Positions 2 to 64,000 of a DNA stretch of 64,000 nt are shown in pieces. This stretch comes from Acidimicrobiia bacterium. GTDB lineage: Bacteria; Actinomycetota; Acidimicrobiia; Actinomarinales; Actinomarinaceae. Location of the stretch: assembly GCA_028376655.1 (NCBI GenBank), contig JAONAZ010000004.1:1201-65200 (forward strand). The letters are read 5' to 3'. Below the pieces are notes generated by a model. It made no database searches, had not been told where the DNA came from, and was given only the letters and a program-made list of their open reading frames with translations. The position numbers were made by a program, and so were the translations under genes. Positions within the stretch are counted from its first letter, which is position 1. Each line of letters starts with the position of its first letter.

Positions 2-1009
2 AAAGAAATTCCAAAAGAAATTGCAAAAGAAGTTCAAGTAGAAAATAAAGACATCTCTACTTCTAACAACCCAGTTAAAGATTCTAAGAAACTAAAACTG
101 TCTCCAATAGTAAGAAAACTTGCAAATGAAAACAATATAGATTTAACCCAAGTTTCAGGAACTGGAAAAGATAATCGTATTACACGTAAAGATATTGAAA
201 ATTTATTAAGCTCTACCCCTTCACCGGAAACTATTAATCAAGAAATCAAAGAGGAAGAAATTCCAGCTCAAAAAGTAGATAACCAAAAAGAAAAAACATC
301 AGGTTCAATTCCAAGACTTAGAAAAAGAATTGCTGAAAATATGATTCTTTCAAAACAAACTTCCGCCCATGTTATGACTTCCGTTGAAGTTGATTATGAA
401 AACATTGCACTCTTAAGAAATAAAATAAAAGCAGAATTCAAACAAAAAGAAGGTTTTTCTTTGACTTTTTTACCCTTCATTTCTGTGGCAACCATAAATG
501 CCTTAAGAGAGTTTCCTGTTGTTAATAGTTCATTTGATTTGGATAAAAATACTCACGACTTACATGACTTTATCAATTTGGGAATCGCTGTGGACCTGAA
601 CAGAGAAGGACTACTTGTTGGGACTATTAAAGATTCGGATTCATTCAATTTGCGTGGACTAGCAAGAAAAATTACTGAAGTTTCCTCTGTTCTTAGAAAT
701 AAAGAATATGGTTTGGAAGATGTTACAGGCAGCACATTCACGATATCTAATAATGGATCTTTTAACTCATTCATCACATCCCCCATAATTAATCAGCCAA
801 ATGTGGCAATTCTTTCTACTGAATCGATTAAGAAAAAACCAGTAGTTATTGAGGCTACAGATGGATCTGATTCAATTGCTATAAGAAATACTGGTGTGCT
901 CAGTCTTACTTGGGACCATAGAGTTTTTGATGGTTCAACAGCTTTATTATTTTTAAATAGTATTAAAGATAAATTAGAGAATCACTCTTGGGTAGATGAT
1001 CTGAATTGA
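2..1009 (+). CDS. sucB: Dihydrolipoamide acyltransferase (E2 of a 2-oxoacid dehydrogenase complex), 5'-truncated by the window edge
   Basis: The frame is open from nt 2, upstream of the tracked Met at 341. That upstream part encodes a peripheral-subunit-binding motif (LSPIVRKLANENNIDLTQVSGTGKDNRITRKDIE). The C-terminal catalytic domain has the DHRVFDG active-site motif. The TGA stop is at 1007-1009. Confidence 0.9.
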   Translation, partial: KEIPKEIAKEVQVENKDISTSNNPVKDSKKLKLSPIVRKLANENNIDLTQVSGTGKDNRITRKDIENLLSSTPSPETINQEIKEEEIPAQKVDNQKEKTSGSIPRLRKRIAENMILSKQTSAHVMTSVEVDYENIALLRNKIKAEFKQKEGFSLTFLPFISVATINALREFPVVNSSFDLDKNTHDLHDFINLGIAVDLNREGLLVGTIKDSDSFNLRGLARKITEVSSVLRNKEYGLEDVTGSTFTISNNGSFNSFITSPIINQPNVAILSTESIKKKPVVIEATDGSDSIAIRNTGVLSLTWDHRVFDGSTALLFLNSIKDKLENHSWVDDLN

Positions 1010-2634
1010 GGAAACTAAATGTTAGATGGCTCGGGAGTCTTCCATACTCAGAAGCATTGATTCTCCAAAAAGGACTCAAAGATTCTGTATCAGATGAACA
1101 CAACCCATATGATTACCTTCTTCTTTTAGAACACAATAATGTCATTACTATAGGTAGAACTGGCGATCCAAAAAACCTTCTCTTTAATAGTGATGAGCTC
1201 CAAAAAAAAGGAATCGAATTTTTTGAAACAGATCGTGGCGGGGATGTAACTTTTCATGGGAAAGGTCAACTGATTGGCTATCCGATAATGAGGCTCCAAG
1301 ATCCAAAAAAAGTTATACCTTTTGTAAGGAGTCTTGAAGAGACAATAATTAAAACTCTTAATAGTTTTGATATAGATGCTTTTTCAAAAGAAGATGATAC
1401 TGGAGTCTGGACACCTAAAGGCAAGATTGCATCCATAGGAGTTAAAGTTAGCAAGTGGACAACTTATCATGGCTTCTCATTAAATATCTTTGATAAACTC
1501 GAGGGTTTTAACCTTATAAACCCTTGCGGAAACCAAGATGAAAAGATATCTGCTGTACATACTTTTAATAAAGAAATTTCTTTTGATGATGTTGTAAATA
1601 AAATAACTTCAACTTTTGTAGACGAATTTGAATACAAAGATGTTGGCATACAGATGTCACAATTCACTCCAACACAGCTTAAAAAACATAAAAAACATGA
1701 AATTGATGAGATGCTCGATAAAGGAGTTTTTCAAAAAAATAATAATATTGTACCAATCACCATAAAAGGTTTGTTACCGGATGAACCACAGAGACCTGAG
1801 TGGATGAAAGTTAAGGCTGACTTAGGCAAAGACTACAGAGATTTAAAAAATCTAATCTCTGAAAAAAAACTTAATACTGTTTGTGAAGAGGCCTCTTGTC
1901 CAAACATATATGAGTGTTGGTCTATGGGTACCGCAACTTTTATGATCATGGGAGATACATGTACTAGAGCTTGTGGATTCTGTGATGTGAATACTGGAAA
2001 GCCTTGTGACCTTGATGACCTTGAACCATTGCGTGTTGCAGAAAGTGTTCAGGCTATGGAGTTGACTCATGCTGTAATAACTTCTGTGAATAGAGACGAT
2101 CTCCCAGATGGTGGTTCAAACTTTTTTGCAAAGACAATAGATGAAGTTAAAAGATTAAACCCGTCTACAAGTGTTGAAGTACTTATTCCAGACTTTAAAG
2201 GAGACAGAAGAGCTATAGATAATATTATTGATGCTAGTCCAGAAGTCTTAAACCATAATTTAGAAACAGTCCCACGACTTCAGAGAGAAATAAGAACAGC
2301 AGCATCCTATGGCCGTTCGCTTTCATTACTTCAATATGCAAAAGATTCTGCATTTCTAGGGAAGACTAAAACAGGTCTCATCGTGGGAATGGGGGAAGAG
2401 TTTGACGAAGTAATCGCAGTTTTAGAAGACTTATCTCAAATCAATGTTGATATTGTGACGATTGGACAGTACCTTAGGCCAACAGCTAAACATAGACCAA
2501 TTCATAGGTATGTTGAAAAAGAAGAATTTGTAAAATATAAAACTATAGGAGAATCCTTTGGAATTCCCCATATTGAATCAGGCCCACTTGTCAGATCTTC
2601 ATATCATGCAAAAGACTCTTTTGCCTCTGTGTAA
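1006..2634 (+). CDS. lipB/lipA: Fused octanoyltransferase (LipB) and lipoyl synthase (LipA), one 542-codon ORF
   Basis: The N-terminal ~215 aa carry LipB motifs (LLLLEHNNVITIGRTG, FETDRGGDVTFHGKGQLIGYP). The C-terminal ~300 aa carry LipA radical-SAM motifs (RPEWMKV lead-in, CEEASCPNIYECW, CTRACGFCDV). No stop codon separates the halves. The TTG start overlaps the sucB stop (TTGA). Confidence 0.85.
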   Translation: MRKLNVRWLGSLPYSEALILQKGLKDSVSDEHNPYDYLLLLEHNNVITIGRTGDPKNLLFNSDELQKKGIEFFETDRGGDVTFHGKGQLIGYPIMRLQDPKKVIPFVRSLEETIIKTLNSFDIDAFSKEDDTGVWTPKGKIASIGVKVSKWTTYHGFSLNIFDKLEGFNLINPCGNQDEKISAVHTFNKEISFDDVVNKITSTFVDEFEYKDVGIQMSQFTPTQLKKHKKHEIDEMLDKGVFQKNNNIVPITIKGLLPDEPQRPEWMKVKADLGKDYRDLKNLISEKKLNTVCEEASCPNIYECWSMGTATFMIMGDTCTRACGFCDVNTGKPCDLDDLEPLRVAESVQAMELTHAVITSVNRDDLPDGGSNFFAKTIDEVKRLNPSTSVEVLIPDFKGDRRAIDNIIDASPEVLNHNLETVPRLQREIRTAASYGRSLSLLQYAKDSAFLGKTKTGLIVGMGEEFDEVIAVLEDLSQINVDIVTIGQYLRPTAKHRPIHRYVEKEEFVKYKTIGESFGIPHIESGPLVRSSYHAKDSFASV

Positions 2635-18369: not shown

Positions 18370-19253
18370 TTTATTAATTCTTTTGCTAGGTTGACTGCAA
18401 TTGTCTCATCTGAAAATAAAATGTTTTTTGATTGAATATTTGTCCCACTACTTTCATTTTCATGCACAATATATTTATTAACCATGCCACCGTAAAATTC
18501 CTGAAGGCCATTTATATTTGGCTCTAATCCAAGGTCCCTAAAATTTCTGTCAGAGGGGCCCTTGAGTGCTTTTTGATCTATAAAAGGACTAATTACTGTA
18601 ACTGAAGTATGTCCAGAGACTATATTTTTTATACTATCTATGCTTAGAATTGGTCCAATTGACAACACTGGATTTGATGGACCGATTATTATTTTGTCTG
18701 CTTCTGAAAGGGCTTTAATTACATCACTTGTTGGCAAAGCATTATTAGATCCATTATATTTTACTTCTTTTAAAACTGGCTCAGCCTTTCTTTCAACAAA
18801 GTATTCCTGAAAGCTTAGTACCTCATCATGGTCAGTAGTTATGGATGTACTAACAACATCATTAGTCATGGGAAGTATTCGACAGCTCAATTTATAGAAG
18901 TCTGTAAAAAATTTTGTTACCTCTGTTAAGTTTTTACCATCGTTGAGCATTTGATTGCGATAAAGTTTAAGTGCTAAGTCTTTATCACCAATTGAAAATT
19001 GTTGTTTGTGATATTCCTTGTAAAAATTGCTAACTTCAAATGTATCTTCTTTCTGACCCCACCCAAACTCTCCTTGCATGTTGGCCAAAGCATACATTAC
19101 AGAGTCAACATCAGGAGAAAGTTTTACTCCGTGTATATTTTCATCATCTGCAGTGTTTACAACTATTGATAGGTCGATATCCTTTAATGCGTAGAAACCT
19201 TTAGCTAGTTTTGCACCTCCAATTCCTCCTGAAATATATGCTATCTTTTTCAT
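18366..19253 (-). CDS. cofD: 2-phospho-L-lactate (or EPPG) transferase
   Basis: N-terminal ISGGIGGAKLAKG motif and length (295 aa) are typical of CofD/FbiA. Forms an operon with cofE. Confidence 0.85.
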   Translation of the reverse strand: MKKIAYISGGIGGAKLAKGFYALKDIDLSIVVNTADDENIHGVKLSPDVDSVMYALANMQGEFGWGQKEDTFEVSNFYKEYHKQQFSIGDKDLALKLYRNQMLNDGKNLTEVTKFFTDFYKLSCRILPMTNDVVSTSITTDHDEVLSFQEYFVERKAEPVLKEVKYNGSNNALPTSDVIKALSEADKIIIGPSNPVLSIGPILSIDSIKNIVSGHTSVTVISPFIDQKALKGPSDRNFRDLGLEPNINGLQEFYGGMVNKYIVHENESSGTNIQSKNILFSDETIAVNLAKELIK

Positions 19254-19295
19254 CTTGACCCTTTATCTAGAAAATATTCATGTAACATTTTATTA

Positions 19296-19550
19296 ATGGT
19301 AGATAAAGAAATTATAGAAGCAATTGCAGAATTAAATGAATCAGAATTGAAACGATTGAAGCTACTTATCGATAACAAATTAAATTTAGACATGAATAAG
19401 AATAAGATTTCCTATCGGAGCAAAGATATAAAGTGTGGTAGAGAGTCTTGTAATTCATGTCCTCACGGTCCATATTGGTATGCTGAATGGACAGAAAATG
19501 GTAAAAGAAAAACAAAGTATTTAGGAAAAATTTTAAATGAAATTTCTTAA
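19296..19550 (+). CDS. Small Cys-cluster protein, function unknown
   Basis: 84 aa with an N-terminal helical region, then CGRESCNSCPHGPYWYAEWTENGKRKTKYLGK (C-x4-C-x2-C-x-H). Overlaps the next gene by 14 nt, which suggests translational coupling. Confidence 0.55.
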   Translation: MVDKEIIEAIAELNESELKRLKLLIDNKLNLDMNKNKISYRSKDIKCGRESCNSCPHGPYWYAEWTENGKRKTKYLGKILNEIS

Positions 19551-21723
19551 AGTTAAAATAACTCCATATTTAACTCAGATTTATTTTTATTTGTTGGCAA
19601 TTTTAATTTTAAGACTAGATTTAGTATTTTTAAATACTATGCCAACCGGTGGAGACATGGGAGCACATGTAGTACCCATAAAATACTTCATAGAAAACTT
19701 TGCGGCAGATTTTCAACTCAATGGTTGGTCCAACGATTGGTTTGCTGGCTATCCTCTATATTTTTTCTATTTTCCTCTTCCGGCATTAATTACATTCATG
19801 TTAAATTTATTCATTACTTACTCGATAGCGTTCAAAATAATGGTAGTTGGATCAATTATTCTTTCTATTTATTCATTTGAAAAATTAATCAGAAAAAAGT
19901 ATGAAAAATTTTCTATTTTTGGTTTTATTGCTGGTTTAACATATGTTCTTACTGAATCTTTTACAATTTATGGGGGGAACTTAGCTTCCACACTAGCTGG
20001 TCAATTTTCATTTACTTATTCAATTGCCTTTGCTAATTTAGCAATTGCTATTATTACAAAGTCAACAAATAAAAATAAATTTGTAATAAGTGCAGTATTT
20101 CTGGGTTTGAGTTTATTAAGCCATTTAATTCCGTTTATCATCTATGGAGTAATTTACTTGTATTTCTGGATAAATTCCAAAGGTACATCTGTAGAGAAAT
20201 TTTCTTCAGCTTTAATATTTGTGGCAATATCTATAAGATTTATAACTTCATTAATTCTTAATCTAGATTTGACTACAAACATGAGTTACACACCATACTC
20301 AAAGCTGAGTGACCTTATCAAAAATGATATCTTACCTTTTTTAATAGTTTTCTTGCTAATTCTCTCATTCAATTTTAAACAAATTTATGAAAGAAAAATA
20401 ATTTCAATATTTGAATGGTTTATTTTAGTATCTTCAGTACTTCTTTATTTTTTCGTACCAGAAGGTGCATTATGGAATGGAAGAGTAATTAGTTTTTTTA
20501 ACTTAGGTGTTATAGTTTTATTTTTTAAATTGCTTCAATATACTATCGAAGTGTCTTTTAAGTATGAGCAGGGAACACTAATTTTAAAAATTTTAAGCCT
20601 TGTTATTATTGTAACCTATCTAGTTAACTTTTCTCAGAAGTGGAATACTATTGGATATAAAGAGTTTCTTTATCCAATGGCTCTTACAGTAATTTTTGGA
20701 TGCGTATATTTCTTTATATCATCCTTAAATTTATTTAAACTGGCTTTCGCAACATCAATAATTTTTACAATTTCATTCCTGCCATATTGGGTAAGTTGGA
20801 ATTTCAACGGATATGAAAATAAAGAGAATTGGAGTGACGTTGAAAATCTATACTCAGACTTAAATAATCTTCCTCCAGGTAGGATAATGTGGGAGCCAAA
20901 TTCTGATTTGAATAAATATGGAACGCCTATGGTTTTAATGACCATACCTTTATATACACACCATACAAGTATGGAGGGATTATATTTTGACTCAAGTATT
21001 ACGACTCCGTTTCATTTTATTGCAGTGTCAGGACTAGCAGAACGTCCTTCAAATCCTGTGGGGGGATTGAGATATATCAATAATGAATTTGAAAAAGGTC
21101 AGAAATATTTACAAGACTTAGGTGTTGATTACTTTATTTCATATACAGATTCAATTAAACAGAAAGCACTTGAAAATAAACAATTAAATTATCTCTTTTC
21201 ATCGGGCCCGTTTACTGTCTTTCAGATTAATTCAGAAAAAGTAGAGTTAGTTAATCAAAAATTAATTAAATTTGAAAAAATTTCATTTTCGGAAAGGACC
21301 CTCAGTTCTATATTCAGAAATACTACATATAAAAATTTTTTTGAAGCAGCATATGAAAATTTTAACAAACTAGATACTGAAAGAATAATTGAAGTCTCGG
21401 CTACAGACTCTATCCAACCTCCTGAAACCTCAGAGCTTGCTAATGTTACAAATCTCAAAATAAATTCAGATAGAATTTCTTTTAATACAGACATGCCAAA
21501 TAAATTGCATATTATTAAGATTTCATATTTTCCAAATTGGGAGATAATTAATGGAGCAGGTCCATACAGAATATCACCTTCATTTATGGCCGTAATTCCA
21601 TATTCAGAAAATGTAGAACTTAATTTTGTTAGATCTAGATATGAAACTTACTCATTCTATATCTCAATATCTTCATTACTATTATTTCTAGTTTTATTTA
21701 GAAAGAAAAATAATTATGTCTAA
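19537..21723 (+). CDS. Large polytopic membrane protein, putative GT-C-type glycosyltransferase
   Basis: 728 aa. The N-terminal ~430 aa are hydrophobic (about 12-13 TM segments), followed by a soluble domain of ~280 aa and a final TM segment. It is co-directional with, and overlaps, a GtrA-like gene, and sits next to a GT2 gene. The family assignment is inferred from architecture only. Confidence 0.6.
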   Translation: MKFLKVKITPYLTQIYFYLLAILILRLDLVFLNTMPTGGDMGAHVVPIKYFIENFAADFQLNGWSNDWFAGYPLYFFYFPLPALITFMLNLFITYSIAFKIMVVGSIILSIYSFEKLIRKKYEKFSIFGFIAGLTYVLTESFTIYGGNLASTLAGQFSFTYSIAFANLAIAIITKSTNKNKFVISAVFLGLSLLSHLIPFIIYGVIYLYFWINSKGTSVEKFSSALIFVAISIRFITSLILNLDLTTNMSYTPYSKLSDLIKNDILPFLIVFLLILSFNFKQIYERKIISIFEWFILVSSVLLYFFVPEGALWNGRVISFFNLGVIVLFFKLLQYTIEVSFKYEQGTLILKILSLVIIVTYLVNFSQKWNTIGYKEFLYPMALTVIFGCVYFFISSLNLFKLAFATSIIFTISFLPYWVSWNFNGYENKENWSDVENLYSDLNNLPPGRIMWEPNSDLNKYGTPMVLMTIPLYTHHTSMEGLYFDSSITTPFHFIAVSGLAERPSNPVGGLRYINNEFEKGQKYLQDLGVDYFISYTDSIKQKALENKQLNYLFSSGPFTVFQINSEKVELVNQKLIKFEKISFSERTLSSIFRNTTYKNFFEAAYENFNKLDTERIIEVSATDSIQPPETSELANVTNLKINSDRISFNTDMPNKLHIIKISYFPNWEIINGAGPYRISPSFMAVIPYSENVELNFVRSRYETYSFYISISSLLLFLVLFRKKNNYV

Positions 21724-40720: not shown

Positions 40721-41060
40721 GGGGGTGAACTGGCTTCGACTTTGAAGTGAGTCTCTCAGTAGCGAGCCGAGGGTCCTAGGGCCTCGTTAAAAACGTAGGA
40801 AAACAATATAATTGCCAAACCTAAATTGGCTATAGCCGCTTAATGCGACTCGTCGACCATCGGGGCTCCCACCTCGGGTGGTATCGGCGTCGAAATGTGG
40901 GATGCTAAGTTAAGCTACCGATTAACTTTTAAGATTAAGGTAGAAAACTTTTGAGAATATGTCTCTGGTGTCTTTCTCAAAAGTATTAACACCAGATGCG
41001 CTCGGAGAAACTGTTAGGTAGCTTAAAAGGACCGGGGTTCGACTCCCCGCACCTCCACCA
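40721..41060 (+). ncRNA. ssrA: tmRNA (SsrA)
   Basis: The 5' end GGGGGUGAACUGGCUUCGAC pairs with the 3' end CACCUCC-ACCA and includes the G3:U alanine identity pair. The T-arm is GGGGUUCGACUCCCC and CCA is encoded. The tag ORF ends ...GCC AAA CCU AAA UUG GCU AUA GCC GCU UAA (40841-43), giving (ENNII)AKPKLAIAA. The resume codon is uncertain: GAA 40799 directly after an in-frame UAG, or GCC 40814. Confidence 0.93.
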
Positions 41061-49331: not shown

Positions 49332-49403
49332 TGGGAGATGGTGTAATTGGCAACACATTTGGTTTTGGTCCAAACGTTGAGGGTTCGAGTCCTTCTCTCC
49401 CAG
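49332..49403 (+). tRNA. tRNA-Gln (anticodon UUG)
   Basis: Hand-folded cloverleaf. Acceptor UGGGAGA/UCUCCCA, D stem GUGU/ACAC, anticodon stem UUUGG/CCAAA with loop UU-UUG-GU, T arm GAGGG-UUCGAGU-CCUUC, and discriminator G. CCA is not encoded. Confidence 0.92.
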
Positions 49404-49411
49404 CAAAATAA

Positions 49412-53497: not shown

Positions 53498-56062
53498 ATG
53501 GATTGGAACAAACATTTCTATTCTCTTTTTTCTTTAATAATATTTATAGTAATTATTGTTTCTTGTGTAAATATAGATTCCAGTAGCGTACTAACTGACG
53601 ACATTGCATATTATGACGATACTACCGGGTGCACTTCAAACAACTATGAACAAAATGACTTTTTAATTGTACAAAATATTCAAATGTTCCTAACTAATGA
53701 ATCATATTTTAATGGTCCATTAAACAATATGTTTGATTCAAAACTTGAAAATAGTTTAAAAAACTTCCAAAAAGCTATGGGAATAAGAATTGATGGAATA
53801 ATTGGTCCCACAACCCACAAAGCCATGCAAAAGTATGATTCATGCACTAAAAAATCAAATATAAATTACATTATTTGTTTCAATGGGGACTACAGGGCGT
53901 ACAAGCAATGTACTGGCCCAAGTAAAAATTACATATCAGAATCGGTAGTCATTTCCGAAGCTATATCTACTTCTGAAGATATTTCAGATAAAAAAGATTG
54001 TGATGATGGTGGAAAGATGTGGCATGGAGAAATAGGTACTCTTTGGAATGCTATGGGAGAATCTACTACTTACAAAAATTGTGATGAGCACAGATTAGCA
54101 AAAAATGCTGGATTTGATTTTATTGAACTGCCCATACCAGGAGTTACACCGGGTGTAGGTCTTGGTGGCCCTTCAAGTCCTTCAAGTCCCTCAAGTCCTT
54201 CGATTTCACCAACAATTAACAATCTAGGAAGTGCAATTTCAATTGCAGAAAATCAAAAAGCTGTTGTAGCAATCTCTGCAACAGGAACAGGTAGTTTGAC
54301 ATATTCATTATCTGGTACAGATTCAAGATTAATGAGTGTCGATACTAGTGGTGTTATTACATTAAACTCTGATGCTGATTATGAGCAAAAAACCTCATAC
54401 GCAGCAAATGCAATTGCCACAAACAGCGTAGGGTCAGCAACAAAGGCATTTACTGTAAATATCACTGATGTTACTGAAAAATATACTGTGAATACTTTGA
54501 TCGTTTATGATATAGACAATCTTGTAGATGGCAATAGTGCTTATGACTCTGTATCTGAGCTGACAAGTTATATGACTAACACAGTTGTGCCTGCACAAAA
54601 TACTATGCTTACCAATAGCGGAGTTACTAACTTAGAAATCGCCTTTACAGGCCTTTATCACTGGACTCTTGCTGAAGCTACTTATGCTGGTTCGCCATAC
54701 AATAGTGCAACAACAAAAATTAGTTTAGACTTTGACGTGTATAAGGAAAAAATTAAAAAAGGTGCGGATAGTTTAGGGGCTTATCTTCCAGGAAATGGGA
54801 ATAGTTCAGTTGTGTGGGATGACACAACAAAAAGAAGGAATGCACCATTTGTAATGTCTAGTAGCTTAAGTTTCGCCACAGGAAAAATTTATGGTCATGA
54901 GTGGGGACACTCGATAGGACTAGTTCATTCAAGAAATCAGTCGAGTAGTCCAGCTGAAACAGGGGATGGCATTACGGACTATGCCCACGGTTACTATGTA
55001 AGTAGCGGAAATACTTTTTCTACAACTATGGGTTATGGTTTTGTTGGATGTGGAATATATTCAAATCCAGATTTAACATGTGCAGGTGATGACGATGATA
55101 CTTTTTTTGTAGATGATAATGATGGGACAGAAGGGTCTCAAGCTGCTGGTGAAGCAAATGTTTCTGATTCTTCGAGGGTACTACAAGAGTATGCACATGA
55201 ATATGAAAGACTAGGTGCAGAAACAAATTACGGTGTAAGTGTTGGTGACTTTTCTGTTAAATCAAATGCTCACTTTCCTTTAATACATAATGGAACAGCA
55301 TCGTATAGTTTTACAGAGTCAATATCTGAAACGTCTAGCGGAACAAAAACTATGTATGTAAAAAAAGGAAGCAATGTAACAATAAGTGGAACGGAGTATG
55401 AAAGTTATACCTGGTGTGATAACTCAAGTTGTGATCTTGATGTTACTGCAAGTTATGAAAGCCAGTCTGGCCATAAAATAGGTTTTGAAATATTAGTAAA
55501 CAGTGGAAATTATTATCTTAATAAAGTTGGTTGGAGTGGCATTTTTAGCACACAAAAAGTTACTGGAAGCAGGAATCATTATGACAGACATTTTGAAGCA
55601 CCATGCTTGTTTATTAGCCACTATATGAAAACAGGACAATACAATGAAGCAGATTGTTCAACAAGATACGCACATCAAAATGTTTATGGAACTTCTTATA
55701 CAGATACTTGGAGTTTCACTAATAATGTAAAAAAGGAATTAGTTGTTACCCCTTATGGGGCATATGACGCCTATAAATATACACATTCCGAATTAAGCCT
55801 TACAGGTTCTTTTGATCCTGATGGTGCCGTTCAGGTTCTAAAATTCTGGTTCAGTCCTGAAGTTGGACTTTTAATGTTTGAAGATGAACTAATGAGAAGA
55901 TGGAAATTAACAGCTGTAGATACAGATGGTGATGGAACGGATAACGCCTCCGATACAGATGATGATGGAGATGGTGTATTAGACACTGTTGATGCTTTCC
56001 CCCTTGATCCAAACGCTTCTGCCGATGCTGATGATGATGGGATAGCTGACGGAGACGAGTAA
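53498..56062 (+). CDS. Multidomain lipoprotein: PG_binding_1 + cadherin-like repeat + metzincin protease + C-terminal Asp-rich calcium-binding (TSP3-like) repeats
   Basis: Lipobox IVSC. PG-binding motif IQMFLTNESYFNGPLNNMFDSKLENSLKNFQKAMGIRIDGIIGPTTHKAM. (PSS)n linker. Cadherin-like ISIAENQKAVVAISATGTGSLTYSLSG...VITLNSDADYEQK...FTVNITDV. Metzincin signature HEWGHSIGLVH (54896-54928). C-terminal DTDGDGTDNASDTDDDGDGVLDTVDAFPLDPNASADADDDGIADGDE. Confidence 0.8.
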   Translation: MDWNKHFYSLFSLIIFIVIIVSCVNIDSSSVLTDDIAYYDDTTGCTSNNYEQNDFLIVQNIQMFLTNESYFNGPLNNMFDSKLENSLKNFQKAMGIRIDGIIGPTTHKAMQKYDSCTKKSNINYIICFNGDYRAYKQCTGPSKNYISESVVISEAISTSEDISDKKDCDDGGKMWHGEIGTLWNAMGESTTYKNCDEHRLAKNAGFDFIELPIPGVTPGVGLGGPSSPSSPSSPSISPTINNLGSAISIAENQKAVVAISATGTGSLTYSLSGTDSRLMSVDTSGVITLNSDADYEQKTSYAANAIATNSVGSATKAFTVNITDVTEKYTVNTLIVYDIDNLVDGNSAYDSVSELTSYMTNTVVPAQNTMLTNSGVTNLEIAFTGLYHWTLAEATYAGSPYNSATTKISLDFDVYKEKIKKGADSLGAYLPGNGNSSVVWDDTTKRRNAPFVMSSSLSFATGKIYGHEWGHSIGLVHSRNQSSSPAETGDGITDYAHGYYVSSGNTFSTTMGYGFVGCGIYSNPDLTCAGDDDDTFFVDDNDGTEGSQAAGEANVSDSSRVLQEYAHEYERLGAETNYGVSVGDFSVKSNAHFPLIHNGTASYSFTESISETSSGTKTMYVKKGSNVTISGTEYESYTWCDNSSCDLDVTASYESQSGHKIGFEILVNSGNYYLNKVGWSGIFSTQKVTGSRNHYDRHFEAPCLFISHYMKTGQYNEADCSTRYAHQNVYGTSYTDTWSFTNNVKKELVVTPYGAYDAYKYTHSELSLTGSFDPDGAVQVLKFWFSPEVGLLMFEDELMRRWKLTAVDTDGDGTDNASDTDDDGDGVLDTVDAFPLDPNASADADDDGIADGDE
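54170..54202 (+). repeat. 9-nt tandem repeat (ccttcaagt x ~3.6) encoding a (PSS)n linker
   Basis: Read directly: ccttcaagt ccttcaagt ccctcaagt ccttcg. Confidence 0.7.
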
Positions 56063-58781: not shown

Positions 58782-61700
58782 ATGATAAATCAAGTTATTG
58801 GTGTGCTTTTGTTTGCTCCTAAAGTATTTAGGAGTATTTTTCGTATATCTACTTTGAAAAAATTACTGTCTGTAACCTTATCTTTTATCATGCTTGTATC
58901 TATTGCCTATACATTTATTGAGACAGTAGATCCTGAACCGGCTTTTGCATCGGGAGAGTTTAATTGTGTAGATAGTGACGGACGAACCTATATATATCAA
59001 AGTACCTGGTCTAGCGGAACTCTAACAATCAATAGAGGAGTTAATAACGATGCAGGTAGTTTCAGCACTTCTGTTATAGAAACTTTTAGTTCATGGGATC
59101 TTGGAAACATTGACGAAGTTAATTCACTTAGCATTACCAGTGATGGTGAAATGTTTGCAATATTAAAAAGAACAAATACAACTCAAGCATACTTATATAA
59201 ATTAAATTATAACGCTTCCGGAAATGGAACAACTACACGCATATCATCCATAGATATAGGTACTGGTGATAACAATGCAGCCTCAAATTATGAAGTTACT
59301 ACAGGTGGAACAACTTATAAATATATTTTCACTTCAAAAGGTTTCTTTAATGGAAATCAAAAAGTAATCCGAATTAATGGTGATGGCTCATACAAAGTAA
59401 TCACTCCAACAATTACAAATGGAGGCAATGGATCCAATAAAGCAAAAGACTTTGCTTGGGTTTCAAATCATCCATCTGGTAATGACTTTGTTGGATATGA
59501 TTCAAGTAATAATGATTTACTTGGAGCTGAGATAACAGCTCATACCAACCATGGAGCTAGCAACGAAGCCATAACAATTGATTTGAGTGTAATTAATGGA
59601 AATATTGGAAGTGGCATAGGTTCAAACTCAGGTGCAGCAATGTCACTTGGCAATGGTGATGTATATTTCTTAGAAAACTCAACTGGAGATCTCTGGTTAT
59701 ATGATCAGTCTGCAGGCTCATTAACAGAAACTAATGATGACTTTAGTAGTTCCAGTAATACTGATGGTGCAGGTTGCGGTATTGGTCTTTCAGGAAACGA
59801 TGAATGGGTTCCTGCATTTTCTGCTGCACAAGGTTCATGTAGTGGTAGTAATAAAACTGTAGCTGTAACACTTAATAACTCTGGTAGTGATGAAGCGGCG
59901 AATTATGTTGTCACGTATACTATCGCTTCAAGTACATCCACCCTTACATCAGGTACAAGTGTAAATGGAGGTGCGAGCAATACCTCGCTCTCTGTACCGG
60001 CACAGGCTAATGGAACATCAGTACAATTAAATTGGTATGCAGAAAATAGCACGTATGGACTCCGGTCGCCCTCGTCAGGTACGACTAGTGTCACAATATC
60101 TGTAGATGCATCTAGTTGTTCTTCAGATGTGACATGGAGTATCTCGACTACAGTCAATACTTGTTGGCTTGGACGAGCAAATGTATCAATAGCATTTGCC
60201 GCCAGTGCAAGTGGTAACACACAGTACTTTGATGTGGAATGGTCTACAGACCAATCAAACTGGACTAGCTTAGTCGATGGAGGTGCATTAGCAGCAGGTG
60301 ATACAGATACTTATACAACAACAGCTGTTAACGATGGAGGAACTGTCTACTTTCATTACAGATACGGTGACTCCAATCCATCTTCAGGGTCTTGGTTAAC
60401 TACAAATGTAACAAATAGAACTATTGATTGTGACCTAATGATAACTGTATCTACTTCATTAGGCTCTTGTTCTAATGGCTCAGCTACAACAACTGTTTCT
60501 TTTGTGGCAAGTGATAACGGTAACACACAGTATTACGATCTTCAGAGACGTGTTGATAGTGGTTCATGGGTTACCATTTTAGATGGAGAGTCAATAGCTG
60601 GGGGAGAGACCAATAATCATACCGCCACTTTAGGTAGCGGAGCATATGAATGGCAGTATAGAATTGGTGATTCCAATCCATCATCGGGCAGTTATACATC
60701 TAATGGTATTAGTGGATCTACATTAACTTCGAGGACTGTAGATTGTGATGTTACATTTACAATTTCAACTTCAATTAATTCTTGTTCCAGTGGAGCAGCA
60801 ACAGTTTCAATTGCATTCGCAGCAAGTGCTGCTGGAAATACGCAGTACTTTGATGTTCAATGGTCAACAGACCAATCAAACTGGACGAACTTAGTCGATG
60901 GAGGTGGTCTTACTTCAGGCGATACGGACACCTATACAACATCAGCTGTTGCTGATGGAGCAACCGTCTATTTCCAATATAGATATGGTGACTCCAATCC
61001 ATCTTCAGGATCTTTTGTGAATACAAATGTTACAAACAGGACCATAGATTGTGATTATATTGATCTCTCTTTCTCTGAAAGTTTTTCAAGCTGTTCAAGC
61101 GGGGCTAAGACAGCTACATTTGCAATTACAAATAGTAGCTCAGCTACTACACATGCCTTTTTGCTCGTAGAGTATTCCACAGATGGTGGTTCTAGTTGGA
61201 CACAAAAAGTTGCTAATCAAGAAGTAGAAGAAAATGAGACAATAAATCTCACACAATCAGTTGCACACGGCCAAACTATCCAGTGGAGATATAAAACCTC
61301 TATATCTTCAGGATCTTTTACTGGTAGTTACACTGAGCGAACTGAAAGTTCAACTGTTAGCTGTCCCGTCATTGACTCATCAGTAAGTCAAGCATTAGGA
61401 AATTGTTCTAGTGGGGCTAAGGTCTCAACATTTACAATGAGCAACTCTGATTCTGCAAATACAGCAGCATACTTTAATGTTCAATATAAAATTGACAACG
61501 GCTCATATCAAAATGCTAGCAATACAAATGTTTCAGTTAGCGCAAACGGATCAGCAACATTAACTCAAAGTGTTCCTCATGGTTCAACAATTACCTGGCA
61601 GTATAGAACCTCAACCACCTCAGAGTCATTTAGTGGCAGCTACACTGCTATTTCTGCAAGCTCAGAGGTTGATTGCCCAGTTATTGATACCACTGTTTCC

Positions 61701-64000
61701 GATAGTTTAGGAAGTTGTTCAAGTGGATCTGCAACATCTACATTTACAATGAATAATAGTAATTCCGCAACTACGAATGCTTATTTTGAGGTTCAATACC
61801 AAGTGACTGATGCAGATGGTAATACGGGAGCCTGGCAGTCGAAACTTTCTAATCAATCAGTTGCTAAGAACGATTCCGAAACAACAACTCAATCTATAAA
61901 TGTGGGTGAGAAGATTAAATGGAAATATAGGACATCTACATCAAGTGGATCTTTCAGTGGCAGCTATACAGAAGAGGACTTAAGTTCTGCTGTCTCCTGC
62001 TCAATAGATATAGGAGCTTCTCAGTCTCTTGGCTCCTGTTCAGGTGCATCTAAAACTTCAACACTTACTATGACAAATAGCAACTCCGCAACAACTACAG
62101 CATATTTTAATGTTCAGTACAAAATTGATAATGGTTCTTATCAAACTCATTCAAGCGGGGCCAGTGTTTCAGTTTCTAAAAATGGCTCATCAGGCCTCAC
62201 ACAATCTGTACCAAATGGATCAACAATCACCTGGCAGTACAGAACATCACAGTTTAATGGTACGTTTTCAGGAAGTTATACAGCTATAAGTGCAAGTAGT
62301 ACCGTAAGTTGTACAACACCTGCAGCCTCAGCTTCTGCCGCAAGTTGCTCCAGTGGTTCTGGAAACATAACCATGACACTTGATAACTCAGATCAAGGTG
62401 CAGCTAATTACTTTAAAGTTCAATACACAACAGACAGTCCACTCGGTTCGCAAACTTGGTCTAATGGTATCGGAGGTTCTCATGTTCAGGTGGGTGCAGA
62501 TGCAACTTCAGATGTCACCTTAGCAAGTTCAGCTATTAGTCACGGCACTACGGTGTATTTAAGATATCAGACCTCGAGTTCCACAGATTTTTCTTCAGCA
62601 TCTACAACAACTTTAAGTAGTATCACAATTGACTGCCCAGTATTAAGTGGAACTGCTTCAGCTTCCGCAGCTAGCTGTTCGAGTGGTAGTGCTGCGGTTC
62701 CAATAACACTTAATAATTCAGGATCAAACATTGCAGGCGTCTTTACAGTTAGGTATTCAACTAATGGTGGCTCGAGTTATACAACGCTTACTGCTACCTC
62801 TGTTGCTGCAGGACAGACAGATACCTCATCACTCTCTATCTCGGCACAATCACATACAACTGCGGTAATAATTAAGTACAGTGTTGCAAACTCATCTGAA
62901 GGATTAAGTCAGTCAGAGGCAACATTATCAACCATAACTATTGACTGCGAGGTAATAAGTTTGACAGCTACAAAAGCAGCCGATGGTTGCAGTAATAATG
63001 GAACTGGTCAAGGTGGGGTATTTGGTAAAACAAAAATCAATATAGACAACAGTGGAAGCAATGTTGCTGTGAATGTACGGCTTCAGAAACAAACTACTAA
63101 CGCGGTTAGTGGGGATGTAACTACATGGGCATATTTTGCCAGTGGAACAACTGGTGGAAGTAGTGGTACTTCCATTAATGCTGGTGTTACGGATACTCAG
63201 TTTAGTTTTGATAGTCACGCACATGGAACAGGAATACAATATCGTTACTCAACTAATGATGGGTCAACCTGGACAGAGATTGGATCAAAAATTACTATGT
63301 CATGTGCAGGTGTTTCTACTGCGGTTGGAACATGCTCAGTTTCTAGTACTCAAACAACAACAATAACTCTTAATAGTGGCTCCCAAGCAACAGTATCAGT
63401 TTTTTACAGGGTAGAATATTCAACTAACAGTGGTTCTTCATGGACTGAATTAAAAAATGATGAGGAGGTTACGGCTAATTCATCTGAAACTTATAACGGA
63501 CCAGTGTTAGCTAATGGTGAAACTGTTCAATGGAGATATAGTTCCAGAAAATCTGGAACATCACATGATAGTTCCTCATGGGTAACGGATGAGACAGATA
63601 TACCTGGTGTAGATCCGACCCTTTCTTATACTGCTAATTGTCCAATTCAGAACCCTACAACCACAACCACAACCACAACTACAACTTCAACCACAACTAC
63701 AACTACAACTACAACTACAACCACGACTCTCCCTCCAACAACGACTACTACGCTCAAACAGGAGATATTTAAACCATCATTATTTGTAAACAGATCTTGT
63801 TCAGACGGTGGTGGAGCATCATTTGGGATTACAGCTCTAAATGTAAGTTCCACAGTGGGTGCAGATATTAGAGTAAAAGTCTGGGTAGACAGCAAAAGAG
63901 TATTCTTTAATACGTATAAAGTTGGCGCTAATAATAATATATTCATCACGTCTATTGGTGGTGTGCCAGAAGATTCTAATTTTAAGATAAAGATTGTTTT
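58782..64000 (+). CDS. Giant secreted/cell-surface repeat protein, 3'-truncated by the window edge (at least 1,739 codons); absent from the supplied ORF track
   Basis: Hand translation from ATG 58782 (the first ATG after an in-frame TAG at 58740) finds no stop through 63998. The N-terminal hydrophobic segment has a PEPAFA/SGE cleavage-like site. A non-repeat head of about 300 aa follows, then 12 tandem modules of ~104 aa, a poly-Thr linker, and at least one more module. Confidence 0.88.
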   Translation, partial: MINQVIGVLLFAPKVFRSIFRISTLKKLLSVTLSFIMLVSIAYTFIETVDPEPAFASGEFNCVDSDGRTYIYQSTWSSGTLTINRGVNNDAGSFSTSVIETFSSWDLGNIDEVNSLSITSDGEMFAILKRTNTTQAYLYKLNYNASGNGTTTRISSIDIGTGDNNAASNYEVTTGGTTYKYIFTSKGFFNGNQKVIRINGDGSYKVITPTITNGGNGSNKAKDFAWVSNHPSGNDFVGYDSSNNDLLGAEITAHTNHGASNEAITIDLSVINGNIGSGIGSNSGAAMSLGNGDVYFLENSTGDLWLYDQSAGSLTETNDDFSSSSNTDGAGCGIGLSGNDEWVPAFSAAQGSCSGSNKTVAVTLNNSGSDEAANYVVTYTIASSTSTLTSGTSVNGGASNTSLSVPAQANGTSVQLNWYAENSTYGLRSPSSGTTSVTISVDASSCSSDVTWSISTTVNTCWLGRANVSIAFAASASGNTQYFDVEWSTDQSNWTSLVDGGALAAGDTDTYTTTAVNDGGTVYFHYRYGDSNPSSGSWLTTNVTNRTIDCDLMITVSTSLGSCSNGSATTTVSFVASDNGNTQYYDLQRRVDSGSWVTILDGESIAGGETNNHTATLGSGAYEWQYRIGDSNPSSGSYTSNGISGSTLTSRTVDCDVTFTISTSINSCSSGAATVSIAFAASAAGNTQYFDVQWSTDQSNWTNLVDGGGLTSGDTDTYTTSAVADGATVYFQYRYGDSNPSSGSFVNTNVTNRTIDCDYIDLSFSESFSSCSSGAKTATFAITNSSSATTHAFLLVEYSTDGGSSWTQKVANQEVEENETINLTQSVAHGQTIQWRYKTSISSGSFTGSYTERTESSTVSCPVIDSSVSQALGNCSSGAKVSTFTMSNSDSANTAAYFNVQYKIDNGSYQNASNTNVSVSANGSATLTQSVPHGSTITWQYRTSTTSESFSGSYTAISASSEVDCPVIDTTVSDSLGSCSSGSATSTFTMNNSNSATTNAYFEVQYQVTDADGNTGAWQSKLSNQSVAKNDSETTTQSINVGEKIKWKYRTSTSSGSFSGSYTEEDLSSAVSCSIDIGASQSLGSCSGASKTSTLTMTNSNSATTTAYFNVQYKIDNGSYQTHSSGASVSVSKNGSSGLTQSVPNGSTITWQYRTSQFNGTFSGSYTAISASSTVSCTTPAASASAASCSSGSGNITMTLDNSDQGAANYFKVQYTTDSPLGSQTWSNGIGGSHVQVGADATSDVTLASSAISHGTTVYLRYQTSSSTDFSSASTTTLSSITIDCPVLSGTASASAASCSSGSAAVPITLNNSGSNIAGVFTVRYSTNGGSSYTTLTATSVAAGQTDTSSLSISAQSHTTAVIIKYSVANSSEGLSQSEATLSTITIDCEVISLTATKAADGCSNNGTGQGGVFGKTKINIDNSGSNVAVNVRLQKQTTNAVSGDVTTWAYFASGTTGGSSGTSINAGVTDTQFSFDSHAHGTGIQYRYSTNDGSTWTEIGSKITMSCAGVSTAVGTCSVSSTQTTTITLNSGSQATVSVFYRVEYSTNSGSSWTELKNDEEVTANSSETYNGPVLANGETVQWRYSSRKSGTSHDSSSWVTDETDIPGVDPTLSYTANCPIQNPTTTTTTTTTTSTTTTTTTTTTTTTLPPTTTTTLKQEIFKPSLFVNRSCSDGGGASFGITALNVSSTVGADIRVKVWVDSKRVFFNTYKVGANNNIFITSIGGVPEDSNFKIKIV
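59778..63641 (+). repeat. Array of 12 tandem coding modules (102-119 codons; four are exactly 312 nt), each with exactly two Cys
   Basis: Module ends (the terminal Cys codon) fall at 60119, 60431, 60746, 61052, 61364, 61676, 62000, 62312, 62636, 62948, 63305 and 63641. The recurrent pattern is C-x(9-20)-C-S-(S/G)-G...T-(F/L)-x-(M/L)-x-N-S...(Y/F)-F-x-V-(Q/E)-(Y/W)...G-x-T-(I/V)-x-(W/F)-x-Y-R...(D/S)-C. Confidence 0.85.
63657..63752 (+). repeat. ACN trinucleotide microsatellite encoding a T10-S-T13-LPP-T5 linker
   Basis: Read directly: aca acc aca acc aca acc aca act aca act tca acc aca act ... The antisense poly-Val ORF in the track (63647..63949 -) is its shadow. Confidence 0.9.

Follow-up and report, generated by a model that had tools for sequence, protein, structure and literature searches.

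Introduction

The locus described here raises two questions: what a long array of repeats, each carrying exactly two cysteines, does in a giant protein of a marine actinobacterium, and with which partner each of these cysteines would be bonded. The gene lies at the end of a 64,000-nucleotide (nt) stretch of an Acidimicrobiia bacterium genome (Actinomarinaceae; assembly GCA_028376655.1, contig JAONAZ010000004.1, positions 1,201 to 65,200 of the forward strand). This whole stretch is called the window, and the coordinates given below refer to it unless another contig is named. The module-bearing open reading frame (ORF) is located on the plus strand in the frame of 58602. It is free of stop codons from 58743 onward, an ATG lies at 58782, and the end of the window at 64000 truncates the gene. 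The remainder of the protein was read from P0016, a full-length cluster representative of 2253 amino acids (aa) that is marked as a protein encoded by the window, and from the sequences L001, L005, and L006. L001 is a 462-kb metagenomic contig on which the gene is complete and nearly identical (2249 aa), and it was reached via the neighboring threonine synthase gene.

The gene is about 6.8 kb long, an estimated 0.6% of a genome of about 1 Mb, and it is annotated in NCBI as a 'hypothetical protein' with a C-terminal sortase as its sole Pfam domain. The Candidatus (Ca.) Actinomarinales, to which its relatives belong, are abundant, uncultured, and extremely streamlined actinobacteria of the surface ocean. 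Their comparative-genomics paper leaves the protein unmentioned and states that the envelope is unknown (PMC7771536), and no literature on this surface protein was found. The reading put forward here, held at a probability of about 0.7, is that the repeats are fibronectin type III (FN3)/immunoglobulin (Ig)-like modules with an Asp-box-like hairpin and one intradomain disulfide each, and that they form the stalk of a peptidoglycan-anchored, giant secreted protein of Ca. Actinomarina.

The cysteine-bracketed module array

The array occupies 59778-63641 on the plus strand (aa 333-1620) and consists of 12 tandem modules of 102-119 aa. Module 1 (59778-60119, 114 aa) is the most divergent and has its cysteines at positions 21 and 114. 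It is followed by module 2 (60120-60431, 104 aa), module 3 (60432-60746, 105 aa), and module 4 (60747-61052, 102 aa), the last being 78% identical to module 2. Module 5 (61053-61364, 104 aa) carries the canonical Asp-box STDGGSSW, modules 6 (61365-61676, 104 aa) and 7 (61677-62000, 108 aa) are those modeled below with AlphaFold2, and module 8 (62001-62312, 104 aa) is 70% identical to module 6. Modules 9 (62313-62636, 108 aa) and 10 (62637-62948, 104 aa; Asp-box STNGGSSY) precede module 11 (62949-63305), which with its insertions reaches 119 aa, and module 12 (63306-63641, 112 aa; Asp-box STNSGSSW), the site of a sub-threshold match to Reelin_subrepeat-B. An earlier reading of the DNA, made from the sequence only, had proposed 12 tandem modules with these end points, and all of them agree exactly with the last nucleotide of a module-ending cysteine codon. 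Three reverse-strand ORFs which overlap the gene (59903-60220, 62928-63239, and 63647-63949) were dismissed as mere shadows of the gene on the plus strand, which is conserved.

All 27 cysteines encoded in the window part of the ORF were listed. Every module has exactly two, the first at position 10-21 and the second at its very end, as the sequence-only reading had claimed, and the 1288 residues of the array hold no other cysteine, so that the pattern is not due to chance. In a MAFFT alignment of the 12 modules, the two cysteines are the only invariant columns, with a mean column identity of 36% and a pairwise identity of 19-78%. The composition is rich in serine (19%) and threonine (14%). The landmarks earlier proposed for the module (TFTMxNSxS, YFxVQY, GSTIxWQYRTS, and SGSYT) occur literally in modules 5-8 and in degenerate form in the others, and the proposed ending (I/V/S)-(D/S)-C describes nine of the 12 modules, the rest being SSC in module 1, MSC in module 11, and ANC in module 12.

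No module-length DNA repeat was detected by Tandem Repeats Finder, whose only detected repeat is a CTACAA repeat in the linker downstream. The module copies are therefore old and diverged rather than the product of recent duplications. Near-identical repeats of the Periscope type are ruled out on the same grounds, together with the range of protein identity.

Distribution among marine Acidimicrobiia

The search with a module profile, which the sequence-only reading had suggested, was run exhaustively with HMMER against 1.84 billion cluster representatives. It gave 242 proteins at E<=1e-3, of which 81 reach E<=1e-10, and the strong matches are only fragments of the same protein, derived from Ca. 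Actinomarinales and marine Acidimicrobiia. Relatives with 44-94% identity were located by a genome scan in metagenome-assembled genomes and genomes of single cells that carry the names Candidatus Actinomarina, Ca. Actinomarinales, or OCS155 cluster, and a relative with 29% identity bears the NCBI name 'hypothetical protein [Acidimicrobiia bacterium]'. Judged by these searches, the module is a narrow, lineage-restricted sequence family without a database model, apparently confined to marine Acidimicrobiia. Defining it would add a new stalk-domain family to the databases and provide an annotation for hundreds of metagenomic fragments.

The cysteines are conserved in the homologues as well. Both are kept in 179 of the 183 full-length module matches; the other four come from contig ends that are truncated or frameshifted. 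The number of modules among the relatives varies from 4 to 13. In 10 homologues with 29-65% identity, the alternation of the cysteine gaps is preserved, with about 85-111 residues within a module and 10-18 at the junctions; the exceptional within-module gap of 186 belongs to one module of P0019 with a large insertion.

The long weak matches, among them P0050, P0088, and P0104, were rejected, as they are Ig_3/I-set, FN3, or PKD repeat proteins which cover the profile partially and do not have the cysteine pair. P0050, P0088, and P0104 (Ig_3/I-set) share a 'YQWQYR(A/T)S..G.W' stretch with the module strand 'ITWQYRTS', placed at a different position of the domain, and this is probably convergent strand chemistry and not homology. 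In the genome of Ca. Actinomarinales AA_MB45 (L007, a 1.02 Mb contig), the region 5968-28835 holds at least three large ORFs rich in cysteine and two sortase segments with TLTTC; it appears to contain several tandem paralogous surface-protein/sortase units, some of them split by frameshifts.

Sequence searches and family membership

The whole protein, a tri-module fragment, each module, and the module profile were searched against Pfam-A, NCBIfam, and the PDB sequences with curated cut-offs. No match reached the threshold for any of these queries, so the idea that the modules are an unrecognized domain family has withstood these searches. Neither fn3 (PF00041) nor any named stalk family of Pfam or NCBIfam matched above the cut-off, the best E-value of the profile against the PDB is 0.015, and DUF11 reaches only E 0.014, which is below its cut-off.

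The resemblance to CARDB (PF07705) that had been suspected at first sight did not hold. The score of module 6 is 13.7 bits (E 0.073) against a cut-off of 22.7, the best E-value is 0.0015, three of the 12 modules are at E<1, and the whole protein has no match. Membership in CARDB is thus unsupported, and the best structural neighbors are FN3 and transglutaminase C-terminal domains. The matches to PAZ, DUF5979, heparinase III, VDAC, and similar families are also below the cut-off and were rejected as noise.

A second group of sub-threshold matches comprises Reelin_subrepeat-B (PF21471), with 25 bits against a cut-off of 27 on module 12 and E<1 in three of the 12 modules, as well as CHB_HEX_C, BNR, F5/8 type C, CBM_6, and CBM_56. 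The modules contain an Asp-box-like motif, S-x-D/N-x-G-x-x-W/Y (e.g., YSTDGGSSWT), with the family consensus VEYSxDGGSSW. A strict Asp-box expression is matched by modules 5, 10, 11, and 12, and the other modules have degenerate forms of it. This hairpin accounts for the Reelin_subrepeat-B, CHB_HEX_C, and BNR matches. The motif is common with Reelin subrepeat B and BNR (PF02012), but these scores do not establish membership in either domain family.

Predicted fold of the module

The structure was predicted with AlphaFold2 for a 239-residue fragment composed of modules 6-7 and their flanks, from an alignment of 32 di-module fragments of the window and the homologues. The model has a mean predicted local distance difference test (pLDDT) score of 93.3 and a predicted template modeling (pTM) score of 0.71. 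It is all-beta, and each module has six long strands: strand A at residues 11-21 of the fragment, B at 24-33, C at 41-49, C' at 55-64, E at 68-77, and F at 82-89. These are followed by an irregular yet well-ordered G segment at residues 90-110, and the C-terminal segment of the module reaches a pLDDT of 95-96. The Asp-box motif sits on the C-C' hairpin.

Foldseek against the PDB with the di-module query returned tandem FN3/Ig-like pairs with a probability of 1.00 and E-values of 1e-5 to 1e-3, including the beta-barrels 1-2 of transglutaminase and factor XIII, Vibrio RbmA, the growth-hormone receptor, FN3 domains 5-6 of neogenin, and the Cpe0147 repeats (4mkm). The Ig-like character suspected from the sequence is thereby borne out, and the predicted fold of the module is of a known kind, the FN3/Ig-like beta-sandwich superfold.

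Probable disulfide pairing

The sequence-only reading had left two options for the cysteines: a disulfide within each domain, which staples its first and last strands, or a short C-x12/13-C loop across the junction of two domains. The model favors the first and argues against the second. Cys20 of the fragment, at position 14 of its module, is the last residue but one of strand A and lies beside the two-residue A-B turn. In the following module, the equivalent Cys124 also lies at the end of a strand (E115-125), and Cys110, the last cysteine of the preceding module, is found five residues before the start of that strand. The A-B loop and the C-terminus are located at the same pole in the FN3 topology, so that a pair between positions 14 and 104 is feasible.

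In the alternative arrangement, the last cysteine of each module would be bonded to the first cysteine of the following one (C-x10-18-C), which would give rigid hinges and no intradomain disulfide. The short and fairly constant junction spacing of 10-18 residues in the window and the homologues speaks for it, as does a cysteine located 21 residues ahead of the first cysteine of module 1. However, strand E115-125 is unbroken over 11 residues, is paired with strand B, and spans about 30 A, which puts the junction cysteines at opposite ends of the hairpin. The five remaining residues are too few to fold back, and the Cys110-Cys124 pair cannot bond in the model. The spacing also loses its constancy where a poly-Thr linker intervenes: the junction gap then grows to 22-51 residues with both cysteines still kept, and the gap within the module stays at about 85-111, the P0019 module excepted. 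In P0018 and P0020, a module with poly-Thr linkers on both sides still has exactly two cysteines. Such behavior indicates that each domain is autonomous and favors internal pairing. Finally, the junction scheme would leave the first cysteine of the N-terminal head and the last one of the small C-terminal domain unpaired. Taken together, this makes junction loops very unlikely.

The cysteine count of the rest of the protein is in line with internal pairs. In the homologues, the head has its own pair with a gap of 268-288 residues and the small C-terminal domain one with a gap of 86-89, and all 28 extracytoplasmic cysteines of the whole protein can be paired within domains. The same count bears on a third arrangement, in which the cysteines form intermolecular disulfides that build a surface lattice or sheath, like the coat of a surface layer (S-layer), or serve as metal ligands or free thiols. 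Two cysteines at the exposed ends of each module could in principle zip parallel fibers together, and the envelope of the Actinomarinales is uncharacterized (PMC7771536). Yet an even number of cysteines domain by domain, the head and the small C-terminal domain included, fits self-contained pairs, and so does the well-ordered C-terminal segment of the model. Nothing else was found in support of a lattice, and the clusters of His, Asp, or Cys typical of metal sites are missing. This arrangement is regarded as highly improbable.

The pattern is therefore best described by intradomain pairing, and each module quite probably has a single disulfide, predicted to connect the cysteine at the A-B turn with the one at the last residue. 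A mean-field direct coupling analysis of 145 modules (effective number of sequences, Meff, 123) gave a signal dominated by gap artefacts near the C-terminus. An invariant disulfide in each domain predicts that these cells depend on extracytoplasmic oxidative folding. The exported sortase substrates of actinobacteria are folded oxidatively via MdbA and VKOR (PMC5478893, PMC9974433), and from general actinobacterial biology (PMC9974433) a thiol-oxidizing machinery of this kind would be expected in the genome.

Proposed mechanical role of the stalk

In the proposed mechanism, the 12 modules would form a stalk that holds a propeller-like head away from the cell, beyond the wall and the capsule, and the fiber would be covalently anchored to the peptidoglycan via a C-terminal LAETG sorting signal of the class E type. 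An Ig-like domain is about 4 nm long, from which a stalk length of about 45-50 nm would follow. Tension would enter each module at its N-terminus and leave it at the C-terminal cysteine. The force would then pass from strand A through the S-S bond to the next module and bypass about 90 of the 104 residues. The bypassed residues would be shielded from mechanical unfolding, and the irregular G segment would be pinned. Isopeptide and ester bonds do the same job in the pilins and adhesins of Gram-positive bacteria.

The modules may, however, be the ligand-binding part themselves. In this scenario, they would be lectin-like or carbohydrate-binding module (CBM)-like Asp-box units, which bind polysaccharides or particles in a multivalent manner, and the disulfide would simply stabilize them. 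The Asp-box-like motif of the family consensus and the sub-threshold matches to Reelin_subrepeat-B, F5/8 type C, CBM_6, CBM_56, and CHB_HEX_C are compatible with such a role, and the divergence of the modules permits different specificities. None of the lectin- or CBM-type matches reaches its cut-off, though, and they are centered on the short Asp-box hairpin, which is found in unrelated folds. The best structural neighbors are of the FN3/Ig stalk type and not CBMs, and a distinct head with a predicted propeller fold occupies the N-terminus, where the adhesive domains normally lie (PMC9210967). The variation of the module number among the relatives is that expected for a length-variable spacer. 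Binding by the modules is accordingly an unlikely explanation of the array.

Several points weigh against the stalk with one internal disulfide per module. The partners of the cysteines are deduced from the secondary-structure geometry of a model and from domain logic, and the stalk role is assigned by analogy, so the modules might themselves bind ligands. The Foldseek E-value of the di-module is only about 1e-5 with a TM-score of about 0.3, although a low TM-score is expected of a two-domain query. Among the 183 full-length matches, no natural variant without one cysteine pair, from which a joint loss could be read, was found besides the broken contig ends. Inspection of all CxxC-containing ORFs revealed no DsbA/MdbA or VKOR gene within the 64 kb of the window; among the conserved ORFs of the window, CxxC is found only in a LipB-LipA fusion, in WhiB, and in a cytoplasmic thioredoxin.

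If the stalk reading holds, the protein would be the main cell-wall-anchored protein of the lineage and a candidate for attachment to particles or partners, phage reception, or defense against grazing.

Head, linker, and wall anchor

The part of the protein ahead of the array starts with a Sec-type signal peptide (aa 1-56; 58782-58949, plus strand), which reads ...KK-LLSVTLSFIMLVSIAYTFI-ETVDPEPAFA/SGEF. Its hydrophobic segment covers aa 24-49, and the EPAFA/EPVYA site is kept in the homologues. The start codon at 58782 is uncertain, as the homologues start closer to the hydrophobic core. The signal peptide is followed by the head domain (aa 57-332; 58950-59777, plus strand), predicted to be a six-bladed beta-propeller. 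The AlphaFold2 model of the head has about 20 strands, a pLDDT of 80.2, and a pTM of 0.81. The Foldseek matches are Kelch/Keap1 and designed six-blade propellers (E 3e-6, TM-score 0.40-0.48); the head belongs to no Pfam family, and all its homologues are unnamed. Its cysteine codons are located at 58965-58967 and 59775-59777. The pair is invariant across eight homologues and lies at the first strand and just past the last strand of the model, where it possibly forms a disulfide 'velcro' closure of the propeller. The head may serve to bind a ligand.

Downstream of the array, a Pro/Thr linker (aa 1621-1657; 63642-63752, plus strand) has the sequence PIQNP-T10-S-T13-LPP-T5. It is encoded in part by the hexanucleotide CTACAA repeated 11 times at 63655-63721, as detected by Tandem Repeats Finder. 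The length of the poly-Thr run differs between the window, P0016, and L001, and the repeat is therefore likely an in-frame slippage site at which the length of the linker varies. The small C-terminal domain, from aa 1658 onward (63753-63998 and past the window, plus strand), is about 90-100 aa long and of a type other than the modules. Its first cysteine is encoded at 63798-63800 and the second lies beyond the end of the window, with the gap of 86-89 residues kept in all homologues; the domain has no match in Pfam or NCBIfam.

Past this domain, P0016, L001, L005, and L006 continue with an acidic, Thr-rich spacer. LAETG then stands at aa 1857 (P0016 numbering), a hydrophobic helix covers 1862-1885, and SSRKKR comes after it. 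The sorting signal for class E sortases in Actinobacteria consists of LAXTG with a helix and a basic tail behind it (PMC5148588). A head, tandem stalk domains, and a wall anchor constitute the defining layout of the fibrillar adhesins (PMC9210967). By its architecture, the protein can be described as a fibrillar-adhesin-like, sortase-anchored surface fiber, for which adhesion would be the presumed function.

The in-frame sortase

The reading frame does not stop at the sorting signal. After LAETG, the transmembrane helix, and RKKR, it continues in P0016 (aa 1857-2253) with a charged linker of about 150 aa, a second transmembrane segment at 2029-2050, and a sortase domain with TLTTC at 2226. The fusion genes are located at 11413-18162 in L001, 5132-11905 in L005, and 2-3814 in L006. 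The sortase domain scores 106.7 bits with PF04203 (cut-off 26.6) and 88.7 bits with TIGR01076 (cut-off 39.35), and the motifs TLTTC, GHRTT, and ARQR are present. The class E model of NCBIfam is the best-scoring class with 121.5 bits, yet this is below its cut-off of 160 bits.

The same layout of substrate and sortase is found in P0018, P0019, P0020, P0023, and P0033 (37-61% identical) as well as in the single-cell genome L006, and is therefore not an assembly error; the fusion is kept in at least six clusters. In the distant P0024 lineage (L010), the surface protein stops after an IAATG-transmembrane-RRRRD end, and a separate sortase gene of 404 aa lies 8 nt downstream. No description of a natural substrate-sortase fusion was found in the literature, as far as the incomplete searchable literature extends.

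With the N-terminal part outside, two transmembrane helices, and about 150 aa of cytoplasmic linker between them, the sortase domain would come to lie outside again, next to its own LAETG. It would cut off the passenger that precedes it in the chain, either in cis or between neighboring molecules, and attach this passenger to the wall. The gene may thus be a self-contained anchoring cassette, in which a single polypeptide comprises the adhesin with its LAETG signal and a class-E-like sortase of its own. The passenger, built from an order-specific, disulfide-clamped FN3-like domain, would form an essentially inextensible fiber on a cell that is among the smallest free-living ones; this extension is tentative and is given somewhat less than even odds. 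The in-frame sortase is a more unusual feature of the gene than the module family, and the fusion, if functional, would be a new way to couple a sortase with its substrate.

Neighboring genes

The window is a segment of a bacterial chromosome with a G+C content of 28-40% per 2 kb, mostly 32-37%, and thrC always precedes the gene. Two genes upstream, at 53498-56062 (plus strand), an 854-aa ORF is located whose counterpart in L001 has a peptidoglycan-binding domain (PG_binding_1), and its sequence suggests another large envelope protein adjoining the locus. Two genes downstream of the big gene, L001 encodes at 18811-20547 a 578-aa multi-pass membrane protein that has a poly-Thr linker and ends in ten SRYHHNHNS repeats in tandem; this His-rich tail may bind metal.

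Elsewhere in the window, a 542-aa ORF at 1006-2634 (plus strand) joins an octanoyl/lipoyl transferase domain of the LipB/LplA type to a radical-SAM lipoyl synthase (LIAS_N and Radical_SAM). It is a LipB-LipA fusion, and hence a further gene fusion in this streamlined genome. A tmRNA gene with the tag peptide AKPKLAIAA lies at 40721-41060 and a tRNA-Gln(TTG) gene at 49332-49404, both on the plus strand.

Comparison with known systems

The closest counterparts of the modules are the FN3/Ig-like (E-set) stalk domains of fibrillar adhesins in Firmicutes and Actinobacteria, such as fn3, Big_x, CARDB, and DUF11 (Monzon et al., PMC9210967). In both cases, a Ser/Thr-rich, all-beta sandwich of about 100 aa is repeated head to tail in variable copy number between an N-terminal head and a C-terminal sortase anchor. 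The modules differ from these domains in that they match no Pfam stalk model at the cut-off, have two invariant cysteines, and carry the Asp-box-like C-C' hairpin. The organism considered here is a free-living, genome-streamlined planktonic oligotroph and not a host-associated bacterium.

The hairpin with the motif S-x-D/N-x-G-x-x-W/Y is common to the module, Reelin subrepeat B (PF21471), and the C-terminal Ig-like domain of chitobiase (PF03174). The Reelin subrepeat is a larger jelly-roll, with which the module probably has the hairpin in common and not the domain.

With respect to the cross-link, the modules would resemble the CnaA/CnaB isopeptide domains and the ester-bond repeats of Clostridium perfringens Cpe0147 (4mkm), in which the region of the first strand is tied to the last strand or the C-terminus within a sortase-anchored fiber. 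The effect of the cross-link would also be similar, namely mechanical and proteolytic resistance. In the modules, however, the cross-link would be a disulfide that needs an oxidizing pathway rather than autocatalytic Lys-Asn or Thr-Gln chemistry, and the modules show no evident triad motif of the isopeptide or ester type. The module would accordingly offer mechanobiology a natural disulfide analogue of the isopeptide-locked pilins.

Actinomyces oris FimA and Corynebacterium diphtheriae SpaA (PMC5478893, PMC9974433) are actinobacterial sortase substrates whose exported Ig-like domains have structural disulfides, as the modules would. These pilins have one or few disulfides in CnaB-type domains and are polymerized by a class C sortase. 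In the protein described here, all 12 tandem domains have the cysteine pair, the anchor signal is LAETG of the class E type, and neither pilin nor E-box motifs were observed. The Streptomyces chaplins ChpA-C (PMC5148588) share with it the LAXTG-type signal, the hydrophobic helix, and the basic tail. The chaplins are small and amyloid-forming, whereas the substrate of Ca. Actinomarina is about 1850 aa long and in one frame with its sortase. Set beside these systems, the module is a new sequence family, but of the ordinary stalk-domain kind found in sortase-anchored surface fibers.

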